Assembly: GCA_963662545.2 (NCBI GenBank)
Contig: CAXXLL010000002.1
Location: forward strand, 992,001-1,056,000
Length of the DNA stretch: 64,000 bases
Direction: 5' to 3'
From: Gammaproteobacteria bacterium
GTDB taxonomy: Bacteria > Pseudomonadota > Gammaproteobacteria > Ga0077536
Shown here in pieces: positions 1,443-50,265 of the stretch (the stretch's first letter is position 1; each line of letters opens with the position of its first letter). The position numbers and the translations under genes were made by a program. The notes beneath the pieces are model-generated. The model made no database searches. It was not told the DNA's origin and saw only the letters and a program-made list of their open reading frames with translations.

Positions 1443-1465
1443 AGGACGAATGTAATCGTAATGAC

Positions 1466-1575: not shown

Positions 1576-1710
1576 GGCGGGGCGATTAACGAAGCCTGGG
1601 CCATATTTCTTTTGCATTTGACAGAGGTGGACCCCGGCGGTTGGACAGAGAACAGGAGCTGATAAGTGGAATCTTCTAGCTTAGGAATCTCGTGAGAGAA
1701 GGAGCAGAAG

Positions 1711-2001
1711 ATGACCCGAAGAAAGCGACGTAATCACGCATCGGCGTTCAAGGCCAAGGTCGCTCTGGCGGCGGTGAAGGGCGAACGCACACGGGCCGAG
1801 CTGGCCGAGCAGTTCGACGTTCATCCTAATCAGAGCCAGGACTGGAAGAAGCGCCTGGTGGAAGGCGCCGAGGACGTGTTTGGCGTGAACGCTGTGGAGG
1901 CCCAGCACAACGAAAAGGGGGTAGAGAAGCTCCACGCCAAGATCGGGCAGTTGGCGATGGAGAACGATTTTTTATCCACAGTGCTCGGGCGCGACCGATG
2001 A
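1711..2001 (+). CDS. IS3-family transposase OrfA (HTH)
   Basis: RRNHASAFKAKVAL...ELAEQFDVHPNQ HTH; T-TTT-TTA heptamer at 1968-1974 could allow a -1 frameshift into the open orfB frame. Confidence 0.9.
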   Translation: MTRRKRRNHASAFKAKVALAAVKGERTRAELAEQFDVHPNQSQDWKKRLVEGAEDVFGVNAVEAQHNEKGVEKLHAKIGQLAMENDFLSTVLGRDR

Positions 2002-2843: not shown

Positions 2844-2994
2844 AACCTAAGGAAGATTTCACTTACGGCACTGTCCAAGTTTCGGGGTCCATTTCTGACA
2901 GCGTGTTTAGTTGCACTTTACTTGGAAATCTAAGCAGCATATTGCACATCACACATCATTATCACAGTGAAAGTAGCAACTGTTGTAACTCTAT

Positions 2995-3408
2995 CTAAAG
3001 AACACACTTCAACAGGCCGCCAAATCCCCAGATGATTGTGCCACCGATTAGGATTGCCGCATAAACGCTAGCGACACGCTTTTCGCTACTTTCTTTCTGT
3101 CTAAGTACAAATCTCTTCGCATGTGCAACGGTTCCCGACGCCTCTTCTTCAATCTCGGCGTCGCTTGCCGCCATCTCGATACTGTCTTTTTTGGTTTCTA
3201 AATCAGATATAACTCCTTCGAATCCCTTTGCATAGAGTGTATTGATTTCTAGATATCCGAAAAATATTCCTACGCAAACAATTAGGGCTCCTGACCGTGA
3301 AAAGAAATCGGGCCAAAGCCAAATAAATTCGGCTATGAGTCCAAAAGCGGCAAAGATTATCGCCGCTCCAATCGCCAGTTTCTCTTCGCTATAGAATTTA
3401 GCGGTCAC
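2995..3408 (-). CDS. Integron cassette membrane protein of unknown function
   Basis: 137 aa with three hydrophobic segments and lower GC; starts just after the recombination core at 3440-3446. Confidence 0.75.
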   Translation of the reverse strand: MTAKFYSEEKLAIGAAIIFAAFGLIAEFIWLWPDFFSRSGALIVCVGIFFGYLEINTLYAKGFEGVISDLETKKDSIEMAASDAEIEEEASGTVAHAKRFVLRQKESSEKRVASVYAAILIGGTIIWGFGGLLKCVL

Positions 3409-3439
3409 TGGTCACCCTTGGTCTGAAATATTTTATGCC

Positions 3440-3548
3440 ACCTAACGCTAGGATAACCGGCGTGTTACAGCTGGCTCATTTGGAGTGAAAATGCGCAGCC
3501 GCTTCAAATGAGCCAGCTGTAAACGTCCGGTTGATCCTTTTGTTAGGT
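3440..3548 (-). repeat. attC site (cassette 1)
   Basis: ACCTAAC 3440-3446 to GTTAGGT 3542-3548; the brnA stop codon lies inside the inverse core site. Confidence 0.93.
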
Positions 3549-3818
3549 TTTTTCATTTCCGTGCGCTTCCATATAAGTTCTAAGGACGGCGTTTATACGA
3601 GTTTGATACCCTTTCCCCTGATTCCGAAACCATTTAAGTACATCTGAGTCGAGTCGAACGGTGATGCTCGATTTCTTCGATGGCATTCGAAGCTCCGCGG
3701 ACTTAAAGAACTCTGGATCAAGCGGTGGGATATCTGACGTATCAATGTCGGTATCCGTCTGAGATTGGACTTCATCCCAATCGGTTTTTGATCGCTTTTT
3801 CGAAGGCTTTGCGCTCAT
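3543..3818 (-). CDS. brnA: BrnA antitoxin
   Basis: C-terminal ITVRLDSDVLKWFR..GKGYQTRINAVLR ribbon-helix-helix motif; overlaps brnT. Confidence 0.92.
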   Translation of the reverse strand: MSAKPSKKRSKTDWDEVQSQTDTDIDTSDIPPLDPEFFKSAELRMPSKKSSITVRLDSDVLKWFRNQGKGYQTRINAVLRTYMEAHGNEKT

Positions 3819-4062
3819 GATTCAATGCTTTCCTCAACGAGATAATTCGGATGATTTCTCCATCATTACGTTCCGTAAATGCGACCACTGCACATATCGA
3901 TTCGAGGAGCCCGATACCCAGCCATCTCGGTTCGCCATAGTCTTCACGGCTATCGAGTAGGCTAAGTACTGGACCTTCGAATAGGGTGACAGCGTCGCGG
4001 AAATCGAGGCCGTGTTTGCGAAGATTTTCCTTTCTCTTCGATTCGTCCCACTCGAATTCCAT
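3772..4062 (-). CDS. brnT: BrnT ribonuclease toxin
   Basis: MEFEWDESKRKENLRKHGLDF...DYGEPR...IRIISLRKA motifs. Confidence 0.93.
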   Translation of the reverse strand: MEFEWDESKRKENLRKHGLDFRDAVTLFEGPVLSLLDSREDYGEPRWLGIGLLESICAVVAFTERNDGEIIRIISLRKALNHERKAFEKAIKNRLG

Positions 4063-10375: not shown

Positions 10376-11644
10376 TCATTCTTTAACGCCCTTGGGCGCC
10401 CGCTGTTTCATGAAGCCGAATAGATAGCCCGCGACGCGCCGCATCTGGATCTCCTCGGCGCCCTCGGTGATGCGGTAGCGGCGGTGATGCCGGTAGATGT
10501 GTTCGAACGGCTTGTGCCGCGAATAGCCCAGCCCACCGTGCACCTGCATCGCGCGATCGGCGGCTTCGCAGCACATGCGGTTCGACCAGTAGTTGCACAT
10601 CGAGACCTTGTCCGACACGGAAAACGGCCCGTGAACATCCATCATCCAGGCTGTCTTGTGAATGAGCGCGCGCACCATCTCACACTGGGTCTGCAATTCC
10701 ACCAGCGGAAACTGGATCCCCTGGTTGCTCGCAAGCGGCTTGCCGAAGGGTTTGCGCTCTTTGGCGTAGGCGACCGATTCGTTGACGCAGTACTGAGCGG
10801 CGCCCAGGCTCGACGCCGCCTGGCGGATGCGGTTTTCGTTGAAGAAATGCTGCACCACCTGCAAGCCGCCGCCTTCCTCGCCGAGAATGGCGTCGTGCGG
10901 GACGGGTACGTCCTTGAGGCTGACGCGGCCGTGATCGGTCGGCATATTGAAGGTCCAGAGCATTTCTTCGACGCGAAAGCCTTGCGCATCCGTCGGCACC
11001 AGAAACGCTGTGATCCCTTCGGCATCACCCGCCTTACCGCTGGTGCGCGCGAAGATGAGGTCGCAGGGTGCGCTATGAATACCCGTATTCCAGGTTTTCT
11101 CGCCGTTGATGCGCCAGCCGTCGCCGTCGCGCACGGCTGTCGTGTCCATGTGAGTGGCATCGGAGCCATGCTCGGGCTCGGTGATCCCAAAGGCGATGAA
11201 GACGCTGCCGTCGGCCAGCGGTTCAGCCCACTCGGCTTTTTGCGACGCGCTCCCGTATTCGAGGATCAAGAGCAGGCCGACGTTATTGGCGACGATCGCG
11301 TGTTCGTTCTGCAAATCGCAATGCAGTCCGAGCCCCTTGGATGCCAGGTGTTCCCGGATCACGGCCATGCCGAGGTTGGTGCCGTCGCGCCCGCCGTATT
11401 CCTTCGGGGATGCGTAACGATAGTGTCCGGCGGCATCCGCGCGCCGGCGGGCCTCGGCCAACAGCGCTTCCCAGTCTTCGCTGGGGATCCCGCCCTTGTC
11501 CCAATTCGTGCGCGCGTATTCGCGGCGGTGGTCGAAGAAGCGGATGTTGTCGTCCTCCTCCTCCAGCGGTTTGATCTCGCGCTCGATGAACGCGTCGAGT
11601 TCCACGAGATAATCGGCGAGGGCCGGGGGGAGATCGAAATTCAC
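10376..11644 (-). CDS. Acyl-CoA dehydrogenase
   Basis: FGITEPEHGSDA, INGEKTW, QVHGGLGY and ITEGAEEIQ motifs; GTG start at 11644 overlaps the upstream TGA. Confidence 0.92.
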   Translation of the reverse strand: MNFDLPPALADYLVELDAFIEREIKPLEEEDDNIRFFDHRREYARTNWDKGGIPSEDWEALLAEARRRADAAGHYRYASPKEYGGRDGTNLGMAVIREHLASKGLGLHCDLQNEHAIVANNVGLLLILEYGSASQKAEWAEPLADGSVFIAFGITEPEHGSDATHMDTTAVRDGDGWRINGEKTWNTGIHSAPCDLIFARTSGKAGDAEGITAFLVPTDAQGFRVEEMLWTFNMPTDHGRVSLKDVPVPHDAILGEEGGGLQVVQHFFNENRIRQAASSLGAAQYCVNESVAYAKERKPFGKPLASNQGIQFPLVELQTQCEMVRALIHKTAWMMDVHGPFSVSDKVSMCNYWSNRMCCEAADRAMQVHGGLGYSRHKPFEHIYRHHRRYRITEGAEEIQMRRVAGYLFGFMKQRAPKGVKE

Positions 11645-12798
11645 GATACTTCCTTCAGCAGTTCGCGGGCGATGATCACGCGCTGAATTTCGCTCGTGCC
11701 TTCGTAGATCGAGGTGACGCGGGCATCGCGCGCGTAACGTTCGAGCGGGTACTCTCGTGTATAACCAACGCCGCCCATCAATTGCAAGGCGGTGTAGCAG
11801 GCGCGGTTGGCAGCCTCGGTCGCGTAGAGCTTGGCCATCGAGGCGGCCTTGATGTAGGGCCGTCCGGCTTCCTTGAGATAGGCGGCGTTCATGATCAGCA
11901 GGCGCGTGGCTTCGAGTTCGGTATAGGTATCGGCCAGCATCCATTGAATGCCCTGAAAGTCGCCGATCTTGCGGCCGAACTGTTCGCGCTCGGTTACGTA
12001 CCGACGTGCGATGTCCATCGCCGCGGTGGCGATGCCGAGCGCGAGCGAACCGATCCCGATACGCCCGCCCGTCAACTCTCCCACGGCCACGCGGAAGCCG
12101 TCATTCGGTTCACCGAGCAGCGCATCGTGGGGGATCCGGCATTCTTCGAAATGCATGGGGTTGGTGCTCGACGCACGCTGTCCCATTTTGAGCTCGGCCT
12201 TGCCGATCGTCATTCCCGGCGTGCCCGCTTCGATCAGAAAGCAGGAGATCCCTTTACCCTGTGAGCGCTCGGCATCCGTTACCGCCCAAACCACGAAGAC
12301 GCCGGCATATTCGGCGCCCGTGATCCACATCTTGGTGCCGTTCAATACCCATTCATCGCCGTCTTGCACCGCGCGCGTCTTCAAGCCCGACGGATCAGAA
12401 CCTGCACCGGCTTCCGAAAGGCAGAAAGCGCCGCTGGCATACTCTCCCGAGCAGAGTTTGGGGATGTAGTGCTTTTTCTGCGCCTCGCTGCCGATGGATT
12501 GGATGATTTCACCGACGAGGTTCGTCACCGACATCGAGAGCGCACTCGACGCGCAACTGCGTGCAATCTCCGTGACAGCGACGCTGAAGGCGACGACGCC
12601 GGCACCCGTGCCGCCATAATCGCTGTTGACGTTCAAGCCCATGAACCCGAGATCAGCGAGTTGCTTGAGCTTTTCGAGATATAGCAGACGCTTGTCGGGG
12701 GATTCGAGGTCGGCCGCGATCGGCGCGAGCTCGGTCTCGGAGAAACGCCGCGCGGTGTCCTGTATCAGGGCCTGTTCTTCAGTCAGATCGAGATGCAT
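11641..12798 (-). CDS. Acyl-CoA dehydrogenase
   Basis: FCLSEAGAGSD, LNGTKMWIT, REQFG and IYEGTSEIQR motifs; start placed at MHLDLTEEQ. Confidence 0.93.
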   Translation of the reverse strand: MHLDLTEEQALIQDTARRFSETELAPIAADLESPDKRLLYLEKLKQLADLGFMGLNVNSDYGGTGAGVVAFSVAVTEIARSCASSALSMSVTNLVGEIIQSIGSEAQKKHYIPKLCSGEYASGAFCLSEAGAGSDPSGLKTRAVQDGDEWVLNGTKMWITGAEYAGVFVVWAVTDAERSQGKGISCFLIEAGTPGMTIGKAELKMGQRASSTNPMHFEECRIPHDALLGEPNDGFRVAVGELTGGRIGIGSLALGIATAAMDIARRYVTEREQFGRKIGDFQGIQWMLADTYTELEATRLLIMNAAYLKEAGRPYIKAASMAKLYATEAANRACYTALQLMGGVGYTREYPLERYARDARVTSIYEGTSEIQRVIIARELLKEVS

Positions 12799-13026
12799 GG
12801 GTGATTTCGACGGATGAGCGAGCGAGAATAGTGCCGCAGAAAAACGGCATGAACAAGGCGGGTGCGCATTGCGTTTTGCCCGCCAGCGGGCGAGCCGGAG
12901 TAATGAGAAAGCCATTTAAAATGGCTTTCTCCCGGCGAGCGCCCGGCCACGGATGGTCGGGCTGGGCTTAAACGAAGCCCGCGGCGTAACGCCAAGGATG
13001 GCAAGTACGGAAGGATTGATAGGGGG

Positions 13027-23774: not shown

Positions 23775-24251
23775 CTAGTCGCCGCCCGATGTCAGCACGC
23801 TTTTAGCCGCCATCGCTAGCAAAACGACGACCAGAACTACACTCGGCAAACCTGGTAGGAAGCCGATGATGCCGATGATGTCCGACTCGCCGAGCGGGCT
23901 GTCGCCCAGGGTGAGTGCTCGATTTCCCGATGCATTCCCAAGCCAGTAGAAAACAGTGAAGGACCAGGCAATGTATATAAACCCGTAGGCCGTGACACGC
24001 TGCATCAGGGGACTTAGACGCAGCGCCGGCATGGCTAAGGCAATAACGATTACCAATATGCCGTTTAAAGCGCCGCCGGTATGGGCTCTGACCCAACCTT
24101 CGCTCGTCCCGTATATCGAGAGAGGCACGATTTTTCCCGGCCAGATCTCGATTCCGCCAATCAGTAAAAACATCAACATGAAGCCGGCAAACATCGAAGC
24201 CAGGACGACCAGCAGTCCGTTTCCGATCATGATTCGTTGCAGTCGTTCCAT
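23775..24251 (-). CDS. styC: Styrene-oxide isomerase (StyC)-like membrane heme protein
   Basis: GG.EI.PG, EGW.RAH.G.ALNG, FY...N...NR.LT.G....G..DI motifs colinear with Pseudomonas StyC as recalled. Confidence 0.8.
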   Translation of the reverse strand: MERLQRIMIGNGLLVVLASMFAGFMLMFLLIGGIEIWPGKIVPLSIYGTSEGWVRAHTGGALNGILVIVIALAMPALRLSPLMQRVTAYGFIYIAWSFTVFYWLGNASGNRALTLGDSPLGESDIIGIIGFLPGLPSVVLVVVLLAMAAKSVLTSGGD

Positions 24252-24284
24252 GGTATTTCTCTCTATTTGGCGATCGTTTTCCGC

Positions 24285-25229
24285 TTAATCAGCTTGCAGG
24301 CCAGTAAATGGCACCGGTATGTCCGGATGATCTGTGTCGACGAGAGGAAGCAGGGCATCCGACGGCAAGGCCGCATGGCCGGCGATCCAGTCTTTCATCC
24401 ACTGCGGGTCGTCTTCGCATCGCGGGTTATGCCATGGCAGCAGTGCGCGCAGCAAATACGGACCGACGTTGCGAACAACTGCGAAAATTTCGCGAATAAT
24501 TCCGGCGATACACTTAGGATGGTAGAGCTTACCGTCTTTCTTCAGGGCGGTAAGCATACCGATCACCCCAAACCCGACGACGTGGAAAGACCCGTGAAAG
24601 ACGCCTATGGCTCGCGGAAGGTATTGGCCGGAATAAGCCATGTAGGCGTCGAACGCGACCGTTTTGTGTTCGGTCTCTTCCACCATGTGCATGAGCCAGA
24701 ATGAAGATACGTACGGAGACGCACCCGTGAACAGTTGCCTTCTCTTATTGATGAGCCAATGGGTGAAGCCGTTGGTCATGGACTCGAATCCGGCGCTATA
24801 CGCAAGCCGTGTGCGCAAGCTTTTCTTTGACAATCTGTCATACGACGCCGCCAGGCGAGCTTCCACCCCAGCGAGCTCGGGATAGCCGTTAGCCTTCAAT
24901 AGCTCGTTCAAGCGCCTATGGCATTGATAATGGCGCGCTTCCTGGCCATTAAAGCCGCGCATGTCTTCCAGTATCTCGGGCTCGCTGATAAATGCGCTCG
25001 CCTCTTGATTTGTTTTTATGAGATAGGGCTCCAGATACGGCATGGTCAGAGACAAGCCGTTAAACAAGTGAGAGCGGGCGTTATTGCCAGGAACCCATAG
25101 GGCCGGGTCCAGGTCGTCCGGGAACTCGAAAGCGAATGGCCGCACGATGATCTCGTCGACCTCCTTCGGTTCGTAGTGATATTTTCGACGGCTCGTGCGC
25201 CGCGTCTGGTCGTCCTTCATCGCCATCAT
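24285..25229 (-). CDS. Ferritin-like diiron protein (predicted metal-dependent hydrolase family)
   Basis: P..E, F.GQEARH, FE..T and H..EETEHK.VAFD motifs. Confidence 0.82.
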   Translation of the reverse strand: MMAMKDDQTRRTSRRKYHYEPKEVDEIIVRPFAFEFPDDLDPALWVPGNNARSHLFNGLSLTMPYLEPYLIKTNQEASAFISEPEILEDMRGFNGQEARHYQCHRRLNELLKANGYPELAGVEARLAASYDRLSKKSLRTRLAYSAGFESMTNGFTHWLINKRRQLFTGASPYVSSFWLMHMVEETEHKTVAFDAYMAYSGQYLPRAIGVFHGSFHVVGFGVIGMLTALKKDGKLYHPKCIAGIIREIFAVVRNVGPYLLRALLPWHNPRCEDDPQWMKDWIAGHAALPSDALLPLVDTDHPDIPVPFTGLQAD

Positions 25230-25543
25230 GCTGCTACCCCCGTTCAGGAGCATGAACTCATTAAATCACAGACGCCATGGGCGCGCGCCTATCGGCGCGC
25301 ACAGCGGACGTCTTCCAAAGCTTGCTATCGCCGAGGCCTGTACCAGTCGCGTTAAAGCCTCCACCGTGCGATTCGTCCGATTTGGAATAGTGTTTGTACC
25401 CGGCTCTATATTCAAAAACGCAATATATTTATTTCCTTTTATTACTTCGGGATGTGTCCGTCATCCCCTAACATCGCCACGCATGTACAGGAGGCATGTG
25501 GGAATGGACCGGACTTTTGCAACATTTGGCCTTTGCGGCAGTC

Positions 25544-26761
25544 ATGTATACATACGATTCAATTGATCAAGGTTTCGTTGACGAGCGGGTCGCGCAATTC
25601 AGGGACCAAACCCGCCGATTTCTCGCCGGAGAACTAGGCGAAGACGAATACCGGCCACTGCGCCTGCGTAATGGCCTTTATATCCAGCGTCACGCGCCGA
25701 TGCTGCGCGTCGCGATTCCTTATGGAATGCTTTCTTCCAGGCAGTTGCGCAAACTCGCCACTATCGCCAGAACCTACGATCGCGGGTACGGACATTTCAC
25801 CACCCGCCAAAACATTCAATATAACTGGCCTCGCCTGGAAGACGTGCCCGACATTCTGGCTGACCTGGCTGACGTGCAAATGCATGCCATCCAAACGAGT
25901 GGCAATTGCGTACGCAACATCACTACGGATCATTTTGCGGGTATCGCGCCCGATGAAATCGTGAATCCGCTGGTATGGGCCGAACTCATCCGGCAGTGGT
26001 CGACTCTGCACCCGGAATTCGGTTTTCTGCCGCGTAAGTTCAAGATCGCCATCAGCGGCGCAGAGAACGATCGCGCGGCGATCAAGCTCCACGATATCGG
26101 CTTGCAGGCCGTCAAAGATGCCGGCGGCGAAGTGGGGTTTCGTGTTTACGTCGGCGGTGGTATGGGGCGCACGCCGATCATCGGGCAGGTGATCCGTGAA
26201 TTTTTGCACTGGCGCGACTTGCTGACCTACCTCGACGCGATCCTGCGGGTCTATAACCGCCACGGCCGGCGCGACAACATCTATAAGGCCCGCATCAAAA
26301 TACTCGTCAAACAGCTGACGCCCGCGCGATTTACCGACGAGGTAGAGCACGAGTGGGCATATCTGAAGGGACGCGACGGCACCTTGATCGAAGAGGAAGT
26401 CCGGCGTGCAACCGAGCAGTTCACGCAGCCGGCCTACGAAGATCTCGCGGACACCGACGACGAATTCGAGGCAACATTGAAGTCCGAGCGTGGCTTCGCA
26501 CGTTGGACTGAACGCAATGTGTACCCGCACAGAGTTTCCGGCTACGCGGCGGTCACGATATCTCTGAAGAAAACTGGCGTGCCGCCGGGCGACGCCAGCG
26601 CGAACCAGATGGATGCCATCGCCCGTCTTGCGGATTTGTTCAGTTTCGGCGAATTGCGCGTGACGCACGAACAGAACCTGGTGCTTGCGGACGTTCGCAA
26701 GGGCGACCTTCACGAATTGTGGAAGGCGCTGCGCGCACTGGGACTGGCGCGACCGAGGTAG
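25544..26761 (+). pseudogene. cysI: 3'-truncated sulfite/nitrite reductase hemoprotein (CysI-like)
   Basis: MY.YD..DQ, RPLRL.NGLY.Q, HFTTRQN, TSGNCVRN and LPRKFKIA present, but the ORF stops before any of the C-terminal Cys ligands of the [4Fe-4S]/siroheme centre. Confidence 0.8.
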
Positions 26762-26783
26762 ATGCTCCCGATCCCGCCGCCCT

Positions 26784-26912
26784 GTTATGACCGTAAAGGA
26801 TGAATTTTTGTCGGCACCTTATACCGCGTGGACAGCAATCGGTGTTGACGAGTTGTTTCCCGACCGAGGTCTGGTAGAGATAGAAATGATCGTTCATGCG
26901 CCTGGTGACTGA
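26784..26912 (+). pseudogene. C-terminal fragment of a RidA/YjgF-family gene
   Basis: VKDEF..APYTAWTAIGV.EL....GLVEIE; the N-terminal two-thirds are missing. Confidence 0.65.
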
Positions 26913-26944
26913 CCCCGGCGCGTTGCTGCTTTCCGTCGGGTCTA

Positions 26945-27430
26945 CTAGCGGGCGATCTCCTTGTGAGGCGCCCACTTATCTTTCGGATCCCGCCAGATGG
27001 TGAGGAAATCTCCCTTATCGTGAACCTCGAGGAAGGTGCATCCATCGGCACCAGCCGTCCAGGTATAAATCTGACCTTCGGGCGCAAAGAATCCCATGCC
27101 TTTCGTCAGCGCCTTCTTGTCGTCACCGTAGTGAAGTGAACCCTCGATGATGAAGTCTATCTGGTTACAATCGTGATGATGACGTGGGACGCACGTGCCA
27201 GGCGCGATCGTGTATTGGATCAGGCTGATCGTCGGTAGATTCAAGATCTCTTTCTCGACGATTCGATCGCCGAAGTGTTCGATGCCGTCAAAGGTGATCT
27301 GCCCGGCCGCAACGAGGTCAGCAAAATTCACCGCTGGGAGTTCGTTGATGTCGTAAAAGAAGGCCCTTATACGCTTGGGCTTCTCCTCTGCTTGGGCTCC
27401 GGCGCGTGTCTCAGTTTGAACGTTGGCCAT
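26945..27430 (-). CDS. Cupin domain protein
   Basis: PG..VPRHHHDCNQIDFIIEG.L and G..F.APEG..Y motifs; SD GGAGGT before ATG 27430. Confidence 0.8.
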   Translation of the reverse strand: MANVQTETRAGAQAEEKPKRIRAFFYDINELPAVNFADLVAAGQITFDGIEHFGDRIVEKEILNLPTISLIQYTIAPGTCVPRHHHDCNQIDFIIEGSLHYGDDKKALTKGMGFFAPEGQIYTWTAGADGCTFLEVHDKGDFLTIWRDPKDKWAPHKEIAR

Positions 27431-27720
27431 CCCTACCTCCTGCCTGTGACGAAGGTTCCAAACGAGCCCTTGTAACAAACTCTGCGGGAGCTCGTGAAGG
27501 AGTGTTGCAAGTGCGTGCAAGGCAACTGCATTTTATATCGAAGTGCCATGGAGTATAGGCGAAATAAAGGCACCGAACTAGCGAAATTATAGCCTTCTCC
27601 GACGCCTCGCTACTGCGGCATCATCGCGGGTCTCGCGGTGTTGTTCGTCCGTTTCCCGGTCGAACCGCGGCGACAGGAACAATAGCCCGCATATTGCGTC
27701 AAGGCGTTGCGATGTGCCGG

Positions 27721-27884
27721 CTAGTGTGCTGTCCCGTAATAAACCTTCATAATTCGCTGGTCCTCGCACCACGCTGCGGCGTTGCTCGTCGTTGCCGTAT
27801 TCCCGATACGACGCCTCCTCGCGCCTTGCACCGCGGCACGAGTCCTGCGCGACTTATCGAAGTTTATTACGGGACAGCCAACTA
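27721..27884. repeat. 165-bp CTAG-flanked palindromic element (MITE-like), copy 1
   Basis: Nearly identical to 36227-36391; its right-hand CTAG is split by IS630. Confidence 0.85.
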
Positions 27885-29029
27885 AATAGGTGTTCCAAAA
27901 ACTCGATCAAATAAAAAGAACTCAGGTGACATTCAGAGATCAGAGGTTGTATCGAGCAATCTACGTTCCCGAAAGAGGTCACCTGAGTATGGATAGTTTA
28001 GTGTCATTGACGCGCTCACAGAAACGTCGCTTTAAGCGGTTGATTCAACGCAGCGATAACGGGCGGGTGGTTCGCCGCGCTCAAGTCCTGTTGCAGTTAG
28101 CTTCAGGCGTCTCACCGACGGCCGTGTCACGCAGTTTGTCGGTCGCGCGTTCAACGGTTTATCGATGGGTCACGCAATTCCAGACCGCGGGTGAAGCCTT
28201 TCTCGAGGCGTGCGGCTCGGGCCGGCGGGCGTATACGGTGGATGACACCCTGTTGGAGACGCTCGCCGAGTTAGTTGAGCAGCCGCCCAGTGATTATGGC
28301 TACCTGCGCAGTACGTGGACGAGCGAGATGCTGGCCGAGACGCTGAATTCGTTGCTGTCACGGCCCATTCACGCCTCTACGGTACGTCGCTGGCTAGTTA
28401 ATTTGGGATTCGGCTGGCGTCGTGCTCGTCCGACCTTACATCTGCGCGACCCACGGGCAGCCACGCGCCTGAAAGCCATTCATCGTGCGTTGTCTCGAGC
28501 CCCATCGGGGCATGAAGTGTTTTACGCCGATGAGGTCGATATCGACCTCAATCCCAAAATCGGTTTCCTTTGGTCTACTCAAGGTTGTCAACGTGCCATC
28601 CCCACGCCTGGGCAAAACCGGAAACGCTATCTGGCGGGCGCGCTGCACGCACGAACCGGTCGCGTTGCGTATGTCGAGGGCACACGGAAAAACAGCGACC
28701 TATTCCTTTGCCTGCTCGACCACCTGCGGCAAACTTACCGCGCCGCGCGTCGAATTATCTTGATCGTGGATAACTACATCATCCACAAATGTCGCTTGGC
28801 ACACGTCTGGCTAAAGCACAATCCGAAATTCCGATTGCTGTTCCAGCCGGCCTATCAGCCCTGGGTCAATGACATTGAGAAACTCTGGAAACAGTTGCAC
28901 GACAATGTCACCCGGAATCATCGTTACTCGACCATCGACCGTCTGATGGACGCAGTACGTGCCTTCATGCGTGCGGCAAGTCCATTCCCGGGAAACTGCC
29001 CGAGTGTCGCAAGATTTGGATCACCTATT
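27885..29029 (+). mobile_element. IS630-family insertion sequence
   Basis: IRs AATAGGTGTTCCAAA / TTTGGATCACCTATT with TA duplicated at 27883-27884 and 29030-29031. Confidence 0.9.
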
Positions 29030-29032
29030 TAG
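27989..29032 (+). CDS. IS630-family DDE transposase
   Basis: N-terminal HTH; FYADE, IVDNYIIHK and P.Y.PW.N.IEKLW motifs; stop codon formed by the target TA. Confidence 0.92.
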   Translation: MDSLVSLTRSQKRRFKRLIQRSDNGRVVRRAQVLLQLASGVSPTAVSRSLSVARSTVYRWVTQFQTAGEAFLEACGSGRRAYTVDDTLLETLAELVEQPPSDYGYLRSTWTSEMLAETLNSLLSRPIHASTVRRWLVNLGFGWRRARPTLHLRDPRAATRLKAIHRALSRAPSGHEVFYADEVDIDLNPKIGFLWSTQGCQRAIPTPGQNRKRYLAGALHARTGRVAYVEGTRKNSDLFLCLLDHLRQTYRAARRIILIVDNYIIHKCRLAHVWLKHNPKFRLLFQPAYQPWVNDIEKLWKQLHDNVTRNHRYSTIDRLMDAVRAFMRAASPFPGNCPSVARFGSPI

Positions 29033-29097
29033 TGTGAAGTGGTTTAACCATGGTAATGTGGATCGTTAACTTACCCGCTTCAAGAGATCGTAGGGTC

Positions 29098-30237
29098 ATG
29101 GAGAAAAAAGCGCTGGCCGTTATCCTCGGCTTGCTAATCAGCAGCACTGTTGCTTTCGCCGAACTCGAATTCGAAGTACTGACAACGGAGCGTCTCCCCG
29201 CCGAGCCCAACCCCCACTGGGTGTGGGTCAACGATATCAACTTCTTCAGCCTGCTGGATGGCAAAGCCTATCTGATCGACGGCGACAACGGCCGTTTTCT
29301 CGGCATGCTGGGGCTCGGGTATTTCCACAACAAGATCATATTTCCCGCGGATGGAAACGTGATTTATACGACCCAGACCTACTATTCGCGTGGCGCTTAC
29401 GGCGAGCGCACCGATTTCATCGGCATTTATGACGCGCGGGATTTGAAACCGATCGGTGAGATCGCCATCCCGAATAAACGCCTGACCGGGATACCTACCC
29501 AGGGCCACACAGCCATCACCGACGAGGATCGATTTATCCTCATCTACAACTTCACGCCGGCGCAATCTGTCACGGTCGTCGATGTGAAAGCGAGCAAAAC
29601 CTTGGGTGAAATCGAAACGCCCGGCTGCTCCCTGGTCTACCCGACAGGCTCGCATCGCTTTTTTATGATCTGCGGCGATGGATCCTTGGTTTCCCTGCAA
29701 CTCGATGACCGTGGCCGGGAAATTGACAAGACGGTTACTAAACCGGTTTTCGACCCGCTGGAAGATCCGATCGAGGAAGACGGCGTTCGCATCGGTAATC
29801 GATGGTCGTTCGTGTCCCGCGAGGGATATGTGTACACGTTCAACGGCGGCGCGGCGGATTTAGCGCTCTCGACCCCCTGGTCATTGCAGAGCACGGCCGA
29901 GCGCAAAGCGTCCTGGCGTGTCGGCGGTTTTCAGATAATCACCGCCCATGCGGCGAGTGGGCGCATGTTCGTCCTGATGCATAAGGGCGGTAAATTTACG
30001 TTTCAGGATCCCGCTGAAGAGATCTGGGTCTACGACCTTGAGCAGAAAGTCCGGCTACAACGCATCAAAGCCAAGCATCCAGCGACTGCCGTGCGGGTCA
30101 GTCAGGACCCCGAGCCGTTGTTGTATACGACGTTTATGGGTGATCCGATCCTCGATGTCTACGATGCCAATACCGGCAAACACCTGCGGACCGTGGAACA
30201 GCTGGGCATCTCACCGACATTTCTGCAAACCCCATGA
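29098..30237 (+). CDS. mauB: TTQ amine dehydrogenase large (beta-propeller) subunit, MauB/AauB-like
   Basis: Signal peptide; TYYSRG.YGERTD, YNFTPAQSV.VVD, TPGC..VYP and CGDGSL motifs. Confidence 0.88.
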   Translation: MEKKALAVILGLLISSTVAFAELEFEVLTTERLPAEPNPHWVWVNDINFFSLLDGKAYLIDGDNGRFLGMLGLGYFHNKIIFPADGNVIYTTQTYYSRGAYGERTDFIGIYDARDLKPIGEIAIPNKRLTGIPTQGHTAITDEDRFILIYNFTPAQSVTVVDVKASKTLGEIETPGCSLVYPTGSHRFFMICGDGSLVSLQLDDRGREIDKTVTKPVFDPLEDPIEEDGVRIGNRWSFVSREGYVYTFNGGAADLALSTPWSLQSTAERKASWRVGGFQIITAHAASGRMFVLMHKGGKFTFQDPAEEIWVYDLEQKVRLQRIKAKHPATAVRVSQDPEPLLYTTFMGDPILDVYDANTGKHLRTVEQLGISPTFLQTP

Positions 30238-44787: not shown

Positions 44788-46995
44788 GTGCACGTTCAGA
44801 CCCGGCCATTTATTTTCCTCGCCGGCACGTTAACTTTTTCTTCTGGTGGCCGACAAAGTGCCCGTTCGATGTTCATTTGCTTGCATTGGAACAAGGGCAT
44901 CCTGTTAGATTTCATGGTGTGCGCTTTTATCGATCTTTCCGCTGATAACGGTAAGATTGGCAAATTCGAGAGCGAACCCTTATCAGGTCCATCCAAGATA
45001 TTTTCTGCAACCGTGCTTGGCTTCAGTCGTTTAACGCCCCCTCCCTGGCCGCTCATTGTCGTGCTCCTCACGGGTGTGATGTTGCCAGCAGGTTTTACCT
45101 GGGCGAATGAGACAGACAGCGAAACAAATGACGATAGGAATACCGCAGAGCCATATACGGATCAGTACCTCGATGAGTTTGATGCCGACGAAATACCGAT
45201 TGATATCGGCGATGAACATGAAGGGCTGCCGCGGAGCTTCGCCGCCAACTATCGGACCTATGTCGATGCGCGCGAGATGATCAGACCGCTGGTCGAGCAC
45301 GGCCTGGATTTTCTTTGGTACCAGGAAACGGATGGATACGGCAGTTTCAACGCTACATTCGAACAACTCTTTAACAACGACGGCCGACCGAATCGAGATT
45401 CTCAAGGCGAGCGGTTTCAGTTGGAAAACCGGGATTTCGTCATCAATGAGAATTATGCCGCCGATACTCGACTCGGACATTTCCGCAGTGAATCCAACAG
45501 ATTGCTCGCGACGAGTTATCGGTTCTTTCTGCCGACCACCTTGCTGCAAGGCGGAACGACGCGCATCCATAGCGATCGGGCGGAGTTTGACGTCACTGCG
45601 GGCTATATCGGCGGGCTGCAAGGGACAGCAGCGCGCGGGTTTCGCAAAACTCGAGGAACCCTGCTAGGCGCCAGCGGCCAATTTTCGATCGATGACAATT
45701 GGAGTGCCTCCGCGCAATTCTGGGATACCAACGACGCCGGCATCGCCGGACGCAACCATCAAGTAGGTGGTGGGGCCGTTCAGTATTTGAGCGACGACCT
45801 GACCCAGAGGCATCAACTGCGTGGCCTGAAAGACAGTAAGGGCCAATTCGGCTCGTGGTACGACGGCGTATCTATCCTTGGACGGTGGCGCCATCGATAT
45901 GGCGCGTTTCACTTTGAGCGCGGCCTGCGGTGGACGGACGTGCAAATCGATAACGACCGGCAAGGTTTGTTCTGGCGCGGCGATTTCAGTTCGTTTCGGT
46001 GGCGCTGGACCCTGGGCTCCGAGGTGTCGAGGAACAACCTCGACGAGCTTGCGACTGTCGCCGGCAATGTCGTGACCAACTCGTTCGTCAACGGCAGCTG
46101 GCAGTTTCGTCGGAAAACGCAAATCGGCGGCCTGGTCACCGTGCGCACGCAACATGCGGATTCCGGTATCGCACGGGGTGACGGCCATACCGCTGAATTA
46201 CGTGCCTTCCTCGCACACGACTTTGCCTTCGGTTTGAGCCGGCTGGAACTGCGCTTCTTAAACGAGAACCTGCCTGCTATAGAACGCGCGGAAACGCAGC
46301 TCAGATGGGATCACGATTGGGCGATCGCATACCTTGATCGTTTTACGACAGAGTTTGAATTCACGCAGGATACATTCGAAGCGCAGGAGGTACTGCTGGG
46401 TATCATCGCCCAAAAAGACCTTACGGACACGGTGAGTGGCGGCTTGGATTTTCAATTGACCCACCGCCAGGACGAGAATGGCGTCGATTCGCGCGCCTAC
46501 AATTGGGGCTTCGGATTTCATTGGTTGGCGCACAGGGACGTCACCATTGACCTGAGTGCGACGGCGGGCCGCGTCACCACCGATCCCGTGATCGGCCCGT
46601 CACGTACCCTTGATGACCTAACGGTACTGTTGAGCGTGAGCTTTGTGAAACAACGAGGACGACCGGCACGAATGAGTGGTTACTCAACGGGACAACGCGG
46701 TAGCGGCACTATCAAAGGGCATGTGTTCTTCGATACGAACCGCAATGGTAAGCGGGATGGCGGTGAACGCGGGCTGCCGCGAATCACGGTATATCTTGAT
46801 GGCCACTTCCGTGCAGAAACGAATACCGCGGGAGAATTCGAATTCGAACGAGTCGGAGCCGGCGAACACTGGTTGCGTATCGCAGTGGAGGAAGCACCCT
46901 TACCCTTCGGCCTCGAAGACGAATCGCCGCAATCGCTCATCGTGCCGATACGCGGGATCGGGCGGATCGACTTCGGTCTGATCGAAATTGAATAG
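44788..46995 (+). CDS. Outer-membrane beta-barrel usher-like protein with C-terminal SdrD-B/prealbumin-like domain (true start probably near 45013-45079)
   Basis: Many alternating amphipathic strands; C-terminal I.GHVFFDTNRNGKRDGGERGL..ITVYLDG....TN.AGEF.F; adjacent to chaperone and pilin-like genes. Confidence 0.7.
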   Translation: MHVQTRPFIFLAGTLTFSSGGRQSARSMFICLHWNKGILLDFMVCAFIDLSADNGKIGKFESEPLSGPSKIFSATVLGFSRLTPPPWPLIVVLLTGVMLPAGFTWANETDSETNDDRNTAEPYTDQYLDEFDADEIPIDIGDEHEGLPRSFAANYRTYVDAREMIRPLVEHGLDFLWYQETDGYGSFNATFEQLFNNDGRPNRDSQGERFQLENRDFVINENYAADTRLGHFRSESNRLLATSYRFFLPTTLLQGGTTRIHSDRAEFDVTAGYIGGLQGTAARGFRKTRGTLLGASGQFSIDDNWSASAQFWDTNDAGIAGRNHQVGGGAVQYLSDDLTQRHQLRGLKDSKGQFGSWYDGVSILGRWRHRYGAFHFERGLRWTDVQIDNDRQGLFWRGDFSSFRWRWTLGSEVSRNNLDELATVAGNVVTNSFVNGSWQFRRKTQIGGLVTVRTQHADSGIARGDGHTAELRAFLAHDFAFGLSRLELRFLNENLPAIERAETQLRWDHDWAIAYLDRFTTEFEFTQDTFEAQEVLLGIIAQKDLTDTVSGGLDFQLTHRQDENGVDSRAYNWGFGFHWLAHRDVTIDLSATAGRVTTDPVIGPSRTLDDLTVLLSVSFVKQRGRPARMSGYSTGQRGSGTIKGHVFFDTNRNGKRDGGERGLPRITVYLDGHFRAETNTAGEFEFERVGAGEHWLRIAVEEAPLPFGLEDESPQSLIVPIRGIGRIDFGLIEIE

Positions 46996-47032
46996 TGCTG
47001 CGGCGCAGCTGCCCGAGATCGGCGGTGGCCCG

Positions 47033-47863
47033 TTATTCTTCGTTCAGTGGTGTGTCATCCAATTTCAGATTACCGCCATCCCATTCGATCAAGCCGGTCA
47101 TGGAGGCGGGCAGCGAGAGTTGCAAGGGGGGCGGTTCCCGATATTCGGGACCGCTCACCGACTGCAGCCCTATCGGCATACTGCGACCCGGTAAAACAGG
47201 AAAAGGCACGACTACAAGCTCGATGTTCGACCCGTCGCTCTGCCTGATGTTGACGCTGCCGAATGGCCGTCCATGCGCATTACCGGAATTGAAGAAATCG
47301 AGATAGGCCGCCTGCCGGCCATCCTCGCTTTCAATGACTCGAGCGCCGCGAAATTCCAAGTTCGCCGTGACGTCACCGATGACGACATACACGACAATGG
47401 CAATTTGGCCGGTTATTGGAATGCTGATATTACCTAATTGCGTCGTCTCAATGCTCTCCGGGGTTGGAGAAATTAAAATCGCAAAGCGGCATTCGCCCGC
47501 GCTGGCGTCGGCTGGAACCTGGATTTCGAATCGATATTTCTTGATTTGCTGAGGCGCGAGTTTTATCCGTCCGCGCTCGATTCGCGACCATGGCCGGCAC
47601 GAGTTCTCCGACAAGCCCGCGTCGACAGGTCGTATAACGACGCCACCCTGAGGATTGATGTCCCAGTCGGCCGTGCGGATGACGTATTCGGCCGTTTCCT
47701 CATCGTTATTCTGGATGTGGATGACGTGACGGACTTTGTCGCCGGGATCCGCCTTGAGTTCAAAATTCGGTGGGCTCACACGCGCTGCAAACGTCGCGGC
47801 ATGCGCTTGCCAAGCCACCGCAAATCCACACAGAAAGCAGGCGCCGATCAAGCACCTGTACAT
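47033..47863 (-). CDS. Periplasmic pilus chaperone-like protein (two Ig-like domains)
   Basis: Signal peptide; VSP..FEL...PG, I.LAP...K..RF.I.VP, then N.GNAHGR and PVLPG..(PapD/CooB-like pattern). Confidence 0.75.
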   Translation of the reverse strand: MYRCLIGACFLCGFAVAWQAHAATFAARVSPPNFELKADPGDKVRHVIHIQNNDEETAEYVIRTADWDINPQGGVVIRPVDAGLSENSCRPWSRIERGRIKLAPQQIKKYRFEIQVPADASAGECRFAILISPTPESIETTQLGNISIPITGQIAIVVYVVIGDVTANLEFRGARVIESEDGRQAAYLDFFNSGNAHGRPFGSVNIRQSDGSNIELVVVPFPVLPGRSMPIGLQSVSGPEYREPPPLQLSLPASMTGLIEWDGGNLKLDDTPLNEE

Positions 47864-47929
47864 ACTAAACTCGAAATTAATTGCCTCTCCCCCGCCATAC
47901 GCGCCGTTGTTGGTAATAAATGAGTGTCG

Positions 47930-48403
47930 CTACATCAATTCAATCTCATAGATCGGCTCGAAGCGCAGCGCGCCTGTTAGCGAGCGTGCATCGAGATTCA
48001 TGGTGAACGTAAAAAATTCGATGAGTAACGGGTCGCTCACGCGACCTTCGAAAATCAGCGCGCGGTTGCCGGGTGTCGTATGTCCGGCCAGAAAGTTTCC
48101 TCGGGTACGCCATTCGAGTTTCAGTCCGGCGCTATTCCCAAGCCCTTTTATCTGCTCCGGCAAGCGCAAGAAAATGCGTGCGTTTTGACCTACGAAATCA
48201 CGGGTATCGAGGCGCACCTCGGCATTCGGCACCCGCGCTGTAAGCGCGTTCAGCTCACGTTCGGACAGCGTGAACATATTGCCGTTATTCTGCCATTCGA
48301 GCTTGATGTTGAACTGTTGTCTGGGTGACGCCGAGTCGTCCAGGATCTGGGCACACGCCCAGGGCGCACAAAGGAGAAGAAACCAGGCGCAATACCGCAT
48401 CAC
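47930..48403 (-). CDS. Exported beta-rich accessory/minor subunit of the pilus-like locus
   Basis: Signal peptide; translationally coupled (GTGA) to the upstream pilin-like gene. Confidence 0.65.
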   Translation of the reverse strand: MMRYCAWFLLLCAPWACAQILDDSASPRQQFNIKLEWQNNGNMFTLSERELNALTARVPNAEVRLDTRDFVGQNARIFLRLPEQIKGLGNSAGLKLEWRTRGNFLAGHTTPGNRALIFEGRVSDPLLIEFFTFTMNLDARSLTGALRFEPIYEIELM

Positions 48404-48900
48404 GGTACCGCCGCAGTGTAGGTCACCGTACCCGCATAAGTACCGGAAGCGATCAGGTTGGTGTTGGCATAGCTGAACGTATGCGTGTCGATTACCACGA
48501 ACGCCGCGACGATAGGGCCTAGAATCACTTGTGCCGGCGTCCCCGCAAACGTACCCGACGGAATATCACCCGCTGCGGCGACCCAACTGATTTCTGTGAA
48601 CGGAATGGTCTCGAAACCATTATTCAACGGCGTTGACGAGTCGACCGTAAGGGTAAATACCTTGAATGGGATACTGAACGGTTGACGCGCATAGGCGCCG
48701 ACGAACATAGCTGGCGTGCCGCCAATGGGCGTGCCGTCGCCAACGTTGGTCACGGGGACATTGACATCCACCGTTGAAACGCCCGCCGGTTGTCCCACCC
48801 GCACGCCGATTTGAGCCGGGCCGAATCCAATGAAGAACACGGCTGCACTCGCGTCCGCCACGAGAGCGCTTACGAGCAAAAACAAAAGGAGGTTTTTCAT
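48400..48900 (-). CDS. Pilin-like exported protein
   Basis: MKNLLLFLLVSALVADASA signal; IPF.EISW, TFSYAN and C-terminal SGTYAGTVTYTAAVP. Confidence 0.75.
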   Translation of the reverse strand: MKNLLLFLLVSALVADASAAVFFIGFGPAQIGVRVGQPAGVSTVDVNVPVTNVGDGTPIGGTPAMFVGAYARQPFSIPFKVFTLTVDSSTPLNNGFETIPFTEISWVAAAGDIPSGTFAGTPAQVILGPIVAAFVVIDTHTFSYANTNLIASGTYAGTVTYTAAVP

Positions 48901-48922
48901 CGGTCTAGTCTCAGCGAACTTC

Positions 48923-48967
48923 AAAAGTGAAGCCCCGCACGCTAAAAGTCTAGCATAGCGGGGCTTC
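48923..48967 (-). terminator. Stem-loop after the major pilin-like gene (partial terminator or mRNA stabiliser)
   Basis: GAAGCCCCGC...GCGGGGCTTC stem followed by ACTTTT on the minus strand. Confidence 0.6.
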
Positions 48968-48999
48968 GGTCCTCGGGGAGGAGGCGGGAGAGAATCCCG

Positions 49000-49593
49000 T
49001 TACAGCGCTACCGCCGTATAGGTCGCCGTACCGGTGTAAAGGCCGGATTGCGGCGGCGTCGCCGGATTATCGTAGGTGTATGTCCATACGCTGCTGCGAT
49101 CGACAACGCCCGTCGAGGTCACCGCTACGGCCGAGGTGTTGTTGCTGCTGTCGGACAGAGTCGGAGCCGGAATGCCGCCGCCGCCGGTGTCAGCGGAATT
49201 GATCTGCGCCCAACTAATGGTGCTCGTGCCGTTGCTCAAACCCGTTGCGCCGCTCGTGACTTCGGTGATTTGAACGGAACCGCCGTTACCGCGAATTTCA
49301 ACGGTAACTTGACCGGTACCAACGTCACCACCTGTGCCGGCCATACCGAGCGTTGGTGCCAACACATCGGCGACCGACGGTGCAAACGAGATCGTATCGA
49401 CGATTCCAGCCGAACCGACGCGGAATGACAGGAAGGCCGGAATCGTTATCTGGAAATCCAGATCGACGTTCGCACCTGCACCGCCTGGTAGAGCAGCAGC
49501 ACCGGTTACAATCTGCGTATCAGCCAGCGAACCCTGCGCGTAAGCTAACGAAGCAACGATGGCAGCGCTAACTAATGTCTTATTGAGTTTCAT
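49000..49593 (-). CDS. Major pilin-like exported protein
   Basis: Sec signal; mature part rich in Gly/Thr/Ala/Ser and Cys-free; C-terminal SGLYTGTATYTA; first gene after the sigma-54 promoter. Confidence 0.78.
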   Translation of the reverse strand: MKLNKTLVSAAIVASLAYAQGSLADTQIVTGAAALPGGAGANVDLDFQITIPAFLSFRVGSAGIVDTISFAPSVADVLAPTLGMAGTGGDVGTGQVTVEIRGNGGSVQITEVTSGATGLSNGTSTISWAQINSADTGGGGIPAPTLSDSSNNTSAVAVTSTGVVDRSSVWTYTYDNPATPPQSGLYTGTATYTAVAL

Positions 49594-49654
49594 CACGTTT
49601 CTCCCGCAATTGCGAATTTAAAAAATTGGATTAAAAATTTTGTTGCCAGAGATA

Positions 49655-49672
49655 TTGCAAGCGGTGTGCCAA
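49655..49672 (-). promoter_or_regulatory. sigma-54 (-24/-12) promoter
   Basis: Minus strand TTGGCACACCGCTTGCAA matches TGGCAC-N5-TTGC. Confidence 0.82.
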
Positions 49673-49691
49673 TCTGGAACCGCGGATTATT

Positions 49692-49864
49692 TGTGCGGCA
49701 CGTCACAAGCCGCCGGCAGTGGTTTGTGATCGGTTTCACATGCGGGGGACGCTTACGTGACGGGCGTCACAAGCTCACTTTCTCTGCTGTCGCTCAGGAA
49801 CGACAGATCTTTGGAAACTGGAAATACTGCCTTTGAACCGGTTAATTTCGTGACCCCCTTCACA
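49692..49864. promoter_or_regulatory. Four TGTGA-N6-TCACA-type boxes
   Basis: 49692-49707 TGTGC-N6-TCACA; 49725-49740 TGTGA-N6-TCACA; 49756-49771 and 49849-49864 CGTGA-N6-TCACA. Confidence 0.75.
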
Positions 49865-49926
49865 AAAACCGGGGGTACCGTAGAATGTAGGTATAGTAAT
49901 CACGATGCCTGCCGATACGGCTAAAC

Positions 49927-50265
49927 ATGATGGTTTTCAGGGGTTTATCGAAGTTGCAAGCGCGCCGCACCCAATGTGTTGGGGTGTTGCTGATCTCGTT
50001 GGGTCTAATGACGGCGTTTACCGTGTCGGCTGATGATTCAATCGGGGTCGGCGGCAACCGCAGTGCCGCGGCTCAGCTAGGTTTCAAAATTCTGATCCCG
50101 CAGGAGCTTAGCGCTGTCTTTCAAACCGGCAGTGATTCGAGGCCTGTCGTCTTCTCGTCCGGTGGACAGGTGAGTTTTACTGTAGATACCTATCGGTCGT
50201 CCGAAGATAGGGGCGCTTCAAATCTCGCGACCCCTCTCAATATTGCGACCGTCGCCGTTCCCTGA
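49927..50265 (+). CDS. Short pilin-like exported protein, divergent from the pilin operon
   Basis: Signal peptide; AQLGFKILIPQEL resembles VDLDFQITIPAFL and SSGGQVSFT resembles GNGGSVQIT of the major subunit; ends TVAVP. Confidence 0.65.
   Translation: MMVFRGLSKLQARRTQCVGVLLISLGLMTAFTVSADDSIGVGGNRSAAAQLGFKILIPQELSAVFQTGSDSRPVVFSSGGQVSFTVDTYRSSEDRGASNLATPLNIATVAVP

Follow-up and report, generated by a model that had tools for sequence, protein, structure and literature searches.

Within a 64,000-nt stretch of DNA from a Gammaproteobacteria bacterium (contig CAXXLL010000002.1, positions 992,001 to 1,056,000; hereafter the window, in whose numbering all positions are given), six genes clustered at 44788-50265 encode exported-looking proteins: a major subunit, a second subunit, an accessory protein, a two-domain chaperone, an outer-membrane barrel and a divergently encoded mini protein. 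We propose that this locus directs the chaperone-assisted, donor-strand-based assembly of a surface fibre of diderm bacteria, with an outer-membrane barrel that is not an usher and with components from hitherto undescribed families. We give this reading a probability of about 0.6, fibre formation itself being a step that we infer. An initial annotation of the same DNA had seen here a distinct, apparently uncharacterised fibre pathway, and the tight co-occurrence of the genes, the lack of any usher signal in the barrel and a modelled complementation of the subunit by the chaperone all support that view.

The six open reading frames (ORFs) of the initial annotation were all found, and each product has a signal-peptide-like N-terminus. 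Signal peptides, cysteine content, C-terminal helices and LPxTG motifs were judged by eye throughout. The locus is laid out as follows.

45013..46995 (+): outer-membrane barrel protein; ORF open from 44788 (735 aa), likely GTG start at 45013
46717..46995 (+): C-terminal SdrD_B/CarboxypepD_reg-like beta-sandwich of the barrel, with a DxNxNG calcium-type motif (Pfam, PDB profile)
47033..47863 (-): periplasmic two-domain chaperone-like protein with signal peptide, 276 aa (AlphaFold2 and Foldseek)
47930..48403 (-): accessory exported protein, 157 aa; present in 78/80 loci
48400..48924 (-): second (minor) subunit, 174 aa; paralogue of the major subunit by hhalign
48929..48967 (-): 17-pair stem-loop between the major and second subunit genes (folding compared with shuffles)
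49000..49596 (-): major subunit with signal peptide, 198 aa; 114 homologues, AlphaFold2 model
49927..50265 (+): mini protein, divergently encoded, 112 aa; lineage-specific

The accessory protein had been described as coupled, and the start of its gene indeed overlaps the second-subunit stop by 4 bp. NCBIfam contained no family for the six window proteins, its single match being at chance level (E 0.18), and Pfam gave sub-threshold matches only, with none for the subunits or the mini protein. Where relatives of the chaperone, the barrel and the major subunit carry a name, it is 'hypothetical', except for two JGI labels reading 'fimbrial chaperone protein'.

Five genes keep the same order in 80 loci

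A pattern scan that took one genome from each GTDB species yielded 447 stretches, 427 of them encoding a relative of the chaperone, and the best 80 loci were fetched. All ORFs in these loci were searched by phmmer with the six window proteins (E<=1e-3); the numbers obtained are lower bounds, several loci being cut by contig ends. A barrel gene was found beside the chaperone gene in every locus (80/80), and matches to the accessory protein, the second subunit and the major subunit were found in 78/80, 72/80 and 64/80 loci, respectively. The order was constant, with one to four copies of the major-subunit gene followed by the genes for the second subunit, the accessory protein, the chaperone and the barrel. 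Such clustering goes far beyond what chance would give, the order being identical in 80/80 loci, and the synteny survey that had been proposed as a check on the initial annotation thus shows genes that co-occur tightly. The conserved unit consists of five genes, because no other flanking family is common to more than 21 of the 80 loci; a sixth conserved gene is thereby ruled out.

The barrel gene occurs in two orientations: it is convergent in 47 loci, as in the window, and co-directional directly after the chaperone gene in the other 33, where the called barrel ORF often abuts or overlaps the chaperone stop. Both architectures are present on one contig of a betaproteobacterial metagenome-assembled genome (MAG), on which two complete cassettes stand in tandem (L046:5856-16250), one with a convergent and one with a co-directional barrel. 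They are therefore distinct paralogous subfamilies that are able to coexist.

Among the 69 loci with room upstream, the major-subunit gene was present in one copy in 42, two copies in 16, three in 2 and four in 1. The longest tandem array, with four copies, lies at L040:116-3945, and near-identical duplicates precede the second-subunit gene in L021 and L023. Such tandem amplification suggests variation of the fibre's main subunit.

According to the record titles, 76 of the 80 hosts are Pseudomonadota, mostly Beta- and Gammaproteobacteria, and the remaining ones are three Desulfobacterales or 'Deltaproteobacteria' and one Nitrospiraceae. All 80 were labelled diderm, and none of the 80 loci came from Bacillota. 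Two loci come from sources other than MAGs, namely those of Hydrogenophaga sp. 5NK40-0174 (L038) and Betaproteobacteria bacterium GR16-43 (L044, a complete genome). A literature search, in which coverage of subscription journals was thin, turned up no account of this Gram-negative cassette.

The chaperone resembles WxLIP and chaperone-usher chaperones in its predicted fold

A homologue search with the chaperone returned 55 relatives, and a family alignment of 47 sequences was built. The AlphaFold2 model made from this alignment (predicted local distance difference test score, pLDDT, of 92.5) shows two beta-sandwich domains. When this model was compared with the PDB by Foldseek, the top matches were the Enterococcus faecium WxLIP chains 9i25_C (E 6.1e-10) and 9i1y_A (E 1.1e-9), followed by CfaA, CsuC, YadV, EcpB, FimC, CupB2 and Caf1M, with E values from 2e-9 to 8e-6. 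The two-domain chaperone predicted from the sequence is thus borne out by both its model and its matches. Against the chaperones of chaperone-usher systems, the template modelling (TM) scores by query were 0.39-0.46, low values that are expected if the angle between the domains differs.

At the sequence level, the sole relative of the chaperone appears to be WxLIP/PF06030, below threshold. The window protein matched PF06030 (WxLIP_PGBD) with an E value of 1.5e-4 and 22.2 bits, compared with a Pfam cut-off of 27.3, and the same domain matched 30 of the 47 family members at E<=0.1, with a best E value of 5.2e-6 and every match below the cut-off. Consistent with this, the family profile found EfmWxLIP1 in the PDB (E 0.0027), where the single window sequence found nothing at E<=10. 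The PapD-like chaperone families PF00345 (PapD_N) and PF02753 matched none of the 47 members at E<=0.1, and PF11797 (DUF3324) likewise none of the 47. Comparison by hhalign with FimC, YadV, SfmC, EcpB and EcpE gave a probability of 2.0%, with a reference of only five sequences that limits its reach.

The protein ends GNLKLDDTPLNEE, with no C-terminal hydrophobic helix there or in the family consensus. Two cysteines, C89 and C125, are invariant in the 47-sequence alignment, in the motifs SCRPW and GECRF, and probably form a periplasmic disulfide. The absence of a C-terminal helix and the invariant pair fit a chaperone that is soluble in the periplasm. One homologue (P0022, 414 aa) has a fused SPOR peptidoglycan-binding domain (PF05036), a form not seen in the window.

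The subunits are paralogues with pilin-like predicted folds

The major subunit had 114 relatives in a homologue search, all of them unnamed or 'hypothetical'. Its C-terminus ends GLYTGTATYTAVAL and that of the second subunit GTYAGTVTYTAAVP, and the C-terminal strand that the two had been said to share is present (YTGTATYTAVAL in the major subunit, YAGTVTYTAAVP in the second). Their mature forms are free of Cys, as described. The major-subunit and second-subunit families align by hhalign with a probability of 99.8% (E 3e-29), and by this comparison the two are paralogues. The major subunit carries an N-terminal extension of about 27 residues in which hydrophobics alternate (VDLDFQITIP), and its C-terminal strand reads YTGTATYTA. 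Facing the conserved LDFxIxIP segment of the major subunit, the hhalign alignment has a gap, the second subunit being about 15 residues shorter there.

The AlphaFold2 model of the major subunit (pLDDT 91.2) matched CfaB first among PDB folds (E 2.5e-3, TM 0.36-0.45). The other top matches were FimG, FimF, FimA, the PapG pilin domain, PapE, PapA, CsuA/B, CS17, CS20 and SafA, together with TasA, TLP-1, archaeal bundling pili and cannulae. Nearly all of the top-ranked matches are pilins or fibres whose units are joined by strand exchange. No WxL chain was among the top 50, although 9i25 is in the library, and no WxL, fimbrial, SCPU or CS1-type Pfam family matched any of 104 major-type or 48 second-subunit sequences at E<=0.1. 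The profile of the major subunit found no pilin in the PDB, its match to borneol dehydrogenase (E 0.074) being due to chance. The label 'WxL/CS1-like', which the initial annotation had given to the subunits, therefore holds in part: the CS1 likeness stands by weak fold matches only, and the WxL likeness lies in the chaperone and not in the subunits.

The accessory protein has a conserved LDDSxSPxQ motif at its mature N-terminus and no sequence relative in Pfam or the PDB, where DUF1302 matched at chance level only (E 0.14) and the PDB profile gave nothing useful. It is not detectably a further subunit paralogue, given hhalign probabilities of 5.0% against the major-subunit family and 19.5% against the second-subunit family. 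Language-model neighbours of an accessory homologue (P0190) were unnamed clusters, then Saf-Nte_pilin (0.94), AfaD (0.93), PsaS (0.92) and SEF14 (0.92). That the accessory protein might be a third pilin-like component is a lead only.

In a modelled complex, a chaperone strand completes the subunit

Modelling of the chaperone-subunit pair had been suggested along with the initial annotation. For the complex, the mature forms of the chaperone (residues 23-276) and of the major subunit (residues 26-198) were folded together, each with its own alignment. Three runs gave ipSAE values of 0.84, 0.85 and 0.87, compared with 0.01 for the best of three controls, with partner pLDDT of at least 84 and a contact agreement between runs of at least 93%. 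In calibration, the mark was reached by 116/157 solved complexes and by 2/215 mismatched pairs, rates that apply roughly to the custom alignments used here.

In the model, the last strand of chaperone domain 1 (residues 142-157, QLGNISIPITGQIAIV) lies between the first and last strands of the subunit and is oriented in parallel with the C-terminal one, with contacts from chaperone residue 148 to subunit residues 190/191, from 153 to 193-195 and from 155 to 194-196. Chaperone residues 153/154 touch both subunit residues 56-58 and 194-195, and the N-terminal strand of the chaperone (27-30) pairs antiparallel with subunit residues 58-55. Subunit residues 26-52 stay outside the interface. The chaperone strand would thus complete an incomplete subunit fold, which is the arrangement of donor-strand complementation, encountered here in a model only.

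The barrel carries an SdrD_B-like tail and no usher signal

When the barrel is translated from the GTG at 45013, its signal peptide is a normal one, with the end TWA|NE. P0056, a database protein identical to the window barrel, starts at 45079 and would lack a signal peptide. A homologue search returned 17 relatives, and a family set of 42 members was used for the Pfam tests. The tail, FFDTNRNGKRDG, contains the motif D-T-N-R-N-G, and SdrD_B matched ORF residues 644-698 with an E value of 1.4e-5 and 25.7 bits, below the cut-off of 29.7. The convergent barrel with a DxNxNG-containing, SdrD-B-like tail that had been read from the sequence is accordingly present. In the family, SdrD_B matched the tails of 38/42 members and CarboxypepD_reg those of 30/42, and OMP_b-brl and DUF481 matched one member each. 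The profile of the family found only SdrD/UafA B-domains in the PDB at E<=10 (best E 1.5e-7), together with one NOMO2 chain (E 1.2).

Ushers combine a 24-strand barrel with a plug and with periplasmic domains at both the N- and the C-terminus. The Pfam Usher family (PF00577) matched none of the 42 barrel-family members at E<=0.01 and did not match the window protein at E<=1, and the PDB profile contained no usher at E<=10. Comparison by hhalign with FimD, HtrE, SfmD and EcpC gave a probability of 1.9%, the sensitivity of this comparison being limited by a reference of only four sequences. In addition, the protein has about 660 aa, compared with about 840-880 aa for the four Escherichia coli ushers, and a crude alignment scan counted about 21 amphipathic beta segments before the tail, in residues 53-528 of P0056. 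The barrel thus falls outside the described usher clades by Pfam, PDB profile and hhalign, in keeping with its description in the initial annotation as part of a non-canonical system.

For comparison with the ESM Atlas, a barrel homologue 42% identical to the window barrel (P0062; predicted TM score, pTM, of the model 0.66) was used. Its neighbours, which come from Pseudomonadota, Acidobacteriota and Bacteroidota, were unnamed 'outer membrane beta-barrel' clusters that carry SdrD_B/CarboxypepD_reg domains, at TM by query of 0.52-0.68 over 457-557 residues. These clusters align in fold with the barrel family and have no described function, and we treat them as leads and not as the definition of a family.

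The closest relative of the window locus, L001 (chaperone 90% identical), has at 10863-12833 (-) an in-frame TAA where the window barrel has Gln (IDNDR*GLFW). Four other near relatives (P0057-P0060), 82-87% identical, are fragments that cover window ORF residues 89-521, 43-435, 394-735 and 90-427. Either the barrel is decaying in the clade of the window or these are assembly errors; the window copy is intact.

A stem-loop follows the major-subunit gene, and the mini protein is lineage-specific

A 91-nt stretch after the major-subunit gene has a minimum free energy of -41.5 kcal/mol (z -5.5), and 0/200 shuffles fold as well. The stem-loop that the initial annotation had placed after this gene is thus present, with 17 pairs at 48929-48967 (-) and a folding energy far below that of shuffled sequences. 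It was not listed by the terminator scan because its T-tail is short, and its probable role is that of a partial terminator or RNA stabiliser in favour of the major subunit. In the terminator and promoter scans as a whole, sites were no more numerous than expected from shuffled sequences.

A 330-bp divergent intergenic region (49597-49926) separates the major-subunit gene from the mini gene. It contains a promoter-like site at 49859-49886 (+) with 10/12 matches, ahead of the mini gene, and the promoter scan of this region called no site for the subunit operon.

The mini protein has a segment GFKILIPQEL that resembles DFQITIPAFL of the major subunit, and it ends V-A-V-P. Its hhalign comparison with the major-subunit family (68.6%, E 4.6e-5) covers 47 N-terminal columns, that is, the signal peptide and the N-terminal strand motif only. 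Only three true representatives were found among 1.84 billion proteins, and frame, signal peptide and motifs are kept in all three; P0200, which had looked like a fourth relative, is a repeat protein and a spurious match. The mini protein is 46% identical to the copy in L001, and for the neighbouring genes of these two genomes the identity is 84-95%. By these comparisons, we regard it as a real, fast-evolving, lineage-specific gene. Since it occurs in 2 of the 80 loci, a role as a core component is ruled out. The mini-subunit of the initial annotation is therefore retained as a real gene with an F.I.IP..L segment, confined to the lineage of the window, and not as a part of the conserved system. 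It could plausibly serve as a chain terminator that offers a donor strand without a complete acceptor body.

The genes that flank the locus are ordinary metabolic and regulatory ones (ECH_1, Bac_luciferase, Meth_synt_2 and a PucR-type regulator). Elsewhere in the window, G+C content is lower at 1-4000 (0.51-0.52) and 24001-30000 (0.54-0.56) than in the remainder (about 0.59-0.62), and these two regions may be acquired DNA.

A proposed assembly pathway

In the pathway that we propose, the major subunit, the second subunit and the accessory protein would be exported to the periplasm by Sec, where the 276-aa chaperone would capture each subunit. The last strand of its first domain (residues ~146-156, with alternating Ile) would insert between subunit strands 55-58 and 190-197, parallel to the latter, while its N-terminal strand 27-30 would pair with the first strand of the subunit. 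The N-terminal extension of the subunit (residues 26-52, with the conserved LDFxIxIP) would be left free. At the barrel, the extension of an incoming subunit would then displace the chaperone strand from the previous subunit, that is, by donor-strand exchange, and the growing fibre would exit via the barrel. The C-terminal SdrD_B-like domain of the barrel may lie in the periplasm and dock the chaperone-subunit complexes. The second subunit, which has a short extension only, could be the distal, first-incorporated one; the stem-loop after the major-subunit gene would raise the ratio of major to minor subunit, and the mini protein, with its extension and truncated body, may occupy a chain end.

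Relation to known systems and alternative explanations

Alternative (class 5, CFA/I-CS1) and archaic (Csu, CupE) chaperone-usher pili share several features with the cassette: a two-domain periplasmic chaperone, for which CfaA and CsuC are among the best fold matches; small, Cys-free beta-sandwich subunits, for which CfaB is the best; a chaperone strand that, in the model, would run parallel to the last strand of the subunit; and genes for subunit, chaperone and outer-membrane barrel in one cluster. The locus could accordingly be seen as a very divergent member of the ordinary chaperone-usher family, in which a shortened usher and a diverged PapD-like chaperone have drifted beyond the reach of sequence methods. 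This explanation gains from a chaperone model that matches CfaA, CsuC, FimC and Caf1M almost as well as WxLIP, from subunit folds closest to class-5 and type-1 pilins, from the classical complementation geometry predicted for the complex, and from a C-terminal beta-sandwich on the barrel that may be reminiscent of the C-terminal domains of ushers. We nevertheless consider it unlikely. No sequence membership was found for any component (PapD_N 0/47, Usher 0/42, fimbrial/SCPU 0/104 and 0/48), and the hhalign probabilities of 1.9% for the barrel and 2.0% for the chaperone point the same way within the sensitivity that references of four and five sequences allow. By sequence, the chaperone is linked to WxLIP/PF06030 only. 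The window barrel, at about 660 aa against about 840-880 aa, falls some 200 aa short of the E. coli ushers and has a single SdrD_B/CarboxypepD_reg-like domain at its end, and the cassette has its own gene order (subunits, accessory, chaperone, barrel), with the barrel convergent in 47/80 loci.

The WxL/Elr pilus of Enterococcus and other Bacillota (PDB 9i25, 9i1y) is the other system to which the cassette is close. Its WxLIP is nearest to the cassette chaperone by sequence and at the top by fold, and a pair of small-subunit paralogues is likewise encoded beside the chaperone. In a 2026 preprint, ElrE and ElrD are described as engaging in donor-strand complementation, with ElrE residues 141-152 as the donor strand (bioRxiv 10.64898/2026.10.17.759780); the strand predicted for the cassette chaperone, 142-157, would likewise lie at the end of domain 1 and close to it in numbering. 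A strict diderm member of this family, with WxL-fold subunits and a DUF916/DUF3324 chaperone, would account for these likenesses and for the sequence link (E 0.0027; PF06030 in 30/47, best E 5.2e-6). We rate it as very unlikely, since all PF06030 matches are under the Pfam cut-off, PF11797 is found in 0/47, no WxL family of Pfam matches the 104 and 48 subunits, no WxL chain is among the top 50 folds and none of the six window proteins ends in LPxTG with a hydrophobic tail. The chaperone differs as well: according to the same preprint, 96.7% of WxL chaperones have a C-terminal transmembrane helix and are membrane-anchored, whereas that of the cassette appears soluble, with an invariant Cys pair and no such helix. 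The preprint also places the WxL system in Bacillota only (48 of 4,698 genera at Pfam thresholds), in contrast to the 80/80 diderm hosts of the cassette, and finds WxL chaperones disjoint from those of PapD type; the passages available from PMC10599100 make no mention of Gram-negative relatives. The cassette is not a member of the WxL/Elr family, because its matches are below thresholds, its chaperone is soluble and paired with an outer-membrane barrel that is always present, and its subunits are not detectably WxL. We put forward tentatively, with the odds somewhat against it, that the cassette is a diderm sister of the WxL/Elr pilus whose chaperone shares DUF916 ancestry and whose barrel is a new assembly or secretion platform unrelated to ushers.

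The locus might also make no fibre at all, its products forming instead a periplasmic or surface complex that does not polymerise (for instance a coat, a binding module or monomeric adhesins) with the barrel as porin or anchor. Polymerisation is after all a step that we infer, many different roles are known for two-domain Ig-like proteins and for small beta-sandwiches, the fold matches of the chaperone also include RbmA, CEP192 and ciliary proteins, and the Atlas neighbours of the barrel family have no known function. We find this explanation improbable in view of the conserved, alternating-hydrophobic N-terminal extension that stays outside the chaperone interface, the tandem amplification of major-subunit genes, the stem-loop after the major gene and the top fold matches, which are almost all strand-exchange pilins. 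Several points nonetheless weigh against fibre assembly with a non-usher barrel. The fold matches of the major subunit are weak (best E 2.5e-3, none at E<=0.001, TM 0.24-0.54), and the score of the complex may in part stem from a likeness to chaperone-pilin complexes of known structure that the model has learned. The barrel gene is interrupted in close relatives and, in the window, is convergent and not co-transcribed, and all but 2 of the 80 loci come from MAGs.

Implications

Donor-strand-exchange pili are textbook systems and drug targets, and to our knowledge all those described in Gram-negative bacteria use a PapD-type chaperone and an usher. The cassette is present in at least 427 species-level genomes, counted as loci with a chaperone relative, and by modelling it would use the same chemistry as these pili. 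It is testable, because cultured or complete carriers exist in Hydrogenophaga sp. 5NK40-0174 and Betaproteobacteria bacterium GR16-43. If the cassette is indeed a diderm sister of the WxL/Elr pilus, it would represent a third outer-envelope route for chaperone-guided donor-strand exchange and would carry the WxL chaperone lineage beyond Bacillota, linking chaperone families that the preprint describes as disjoint. Confirmation would make the barrel a new export platform of the outer membrane, would bridge in evolutionary terms the chaperone families of Gram-positive and Gram-negative bacteria, and would give a function to five 'hypothetical' families that are common in Beta- and Gammaproteobacteria of soil, groundwater and wastewater.

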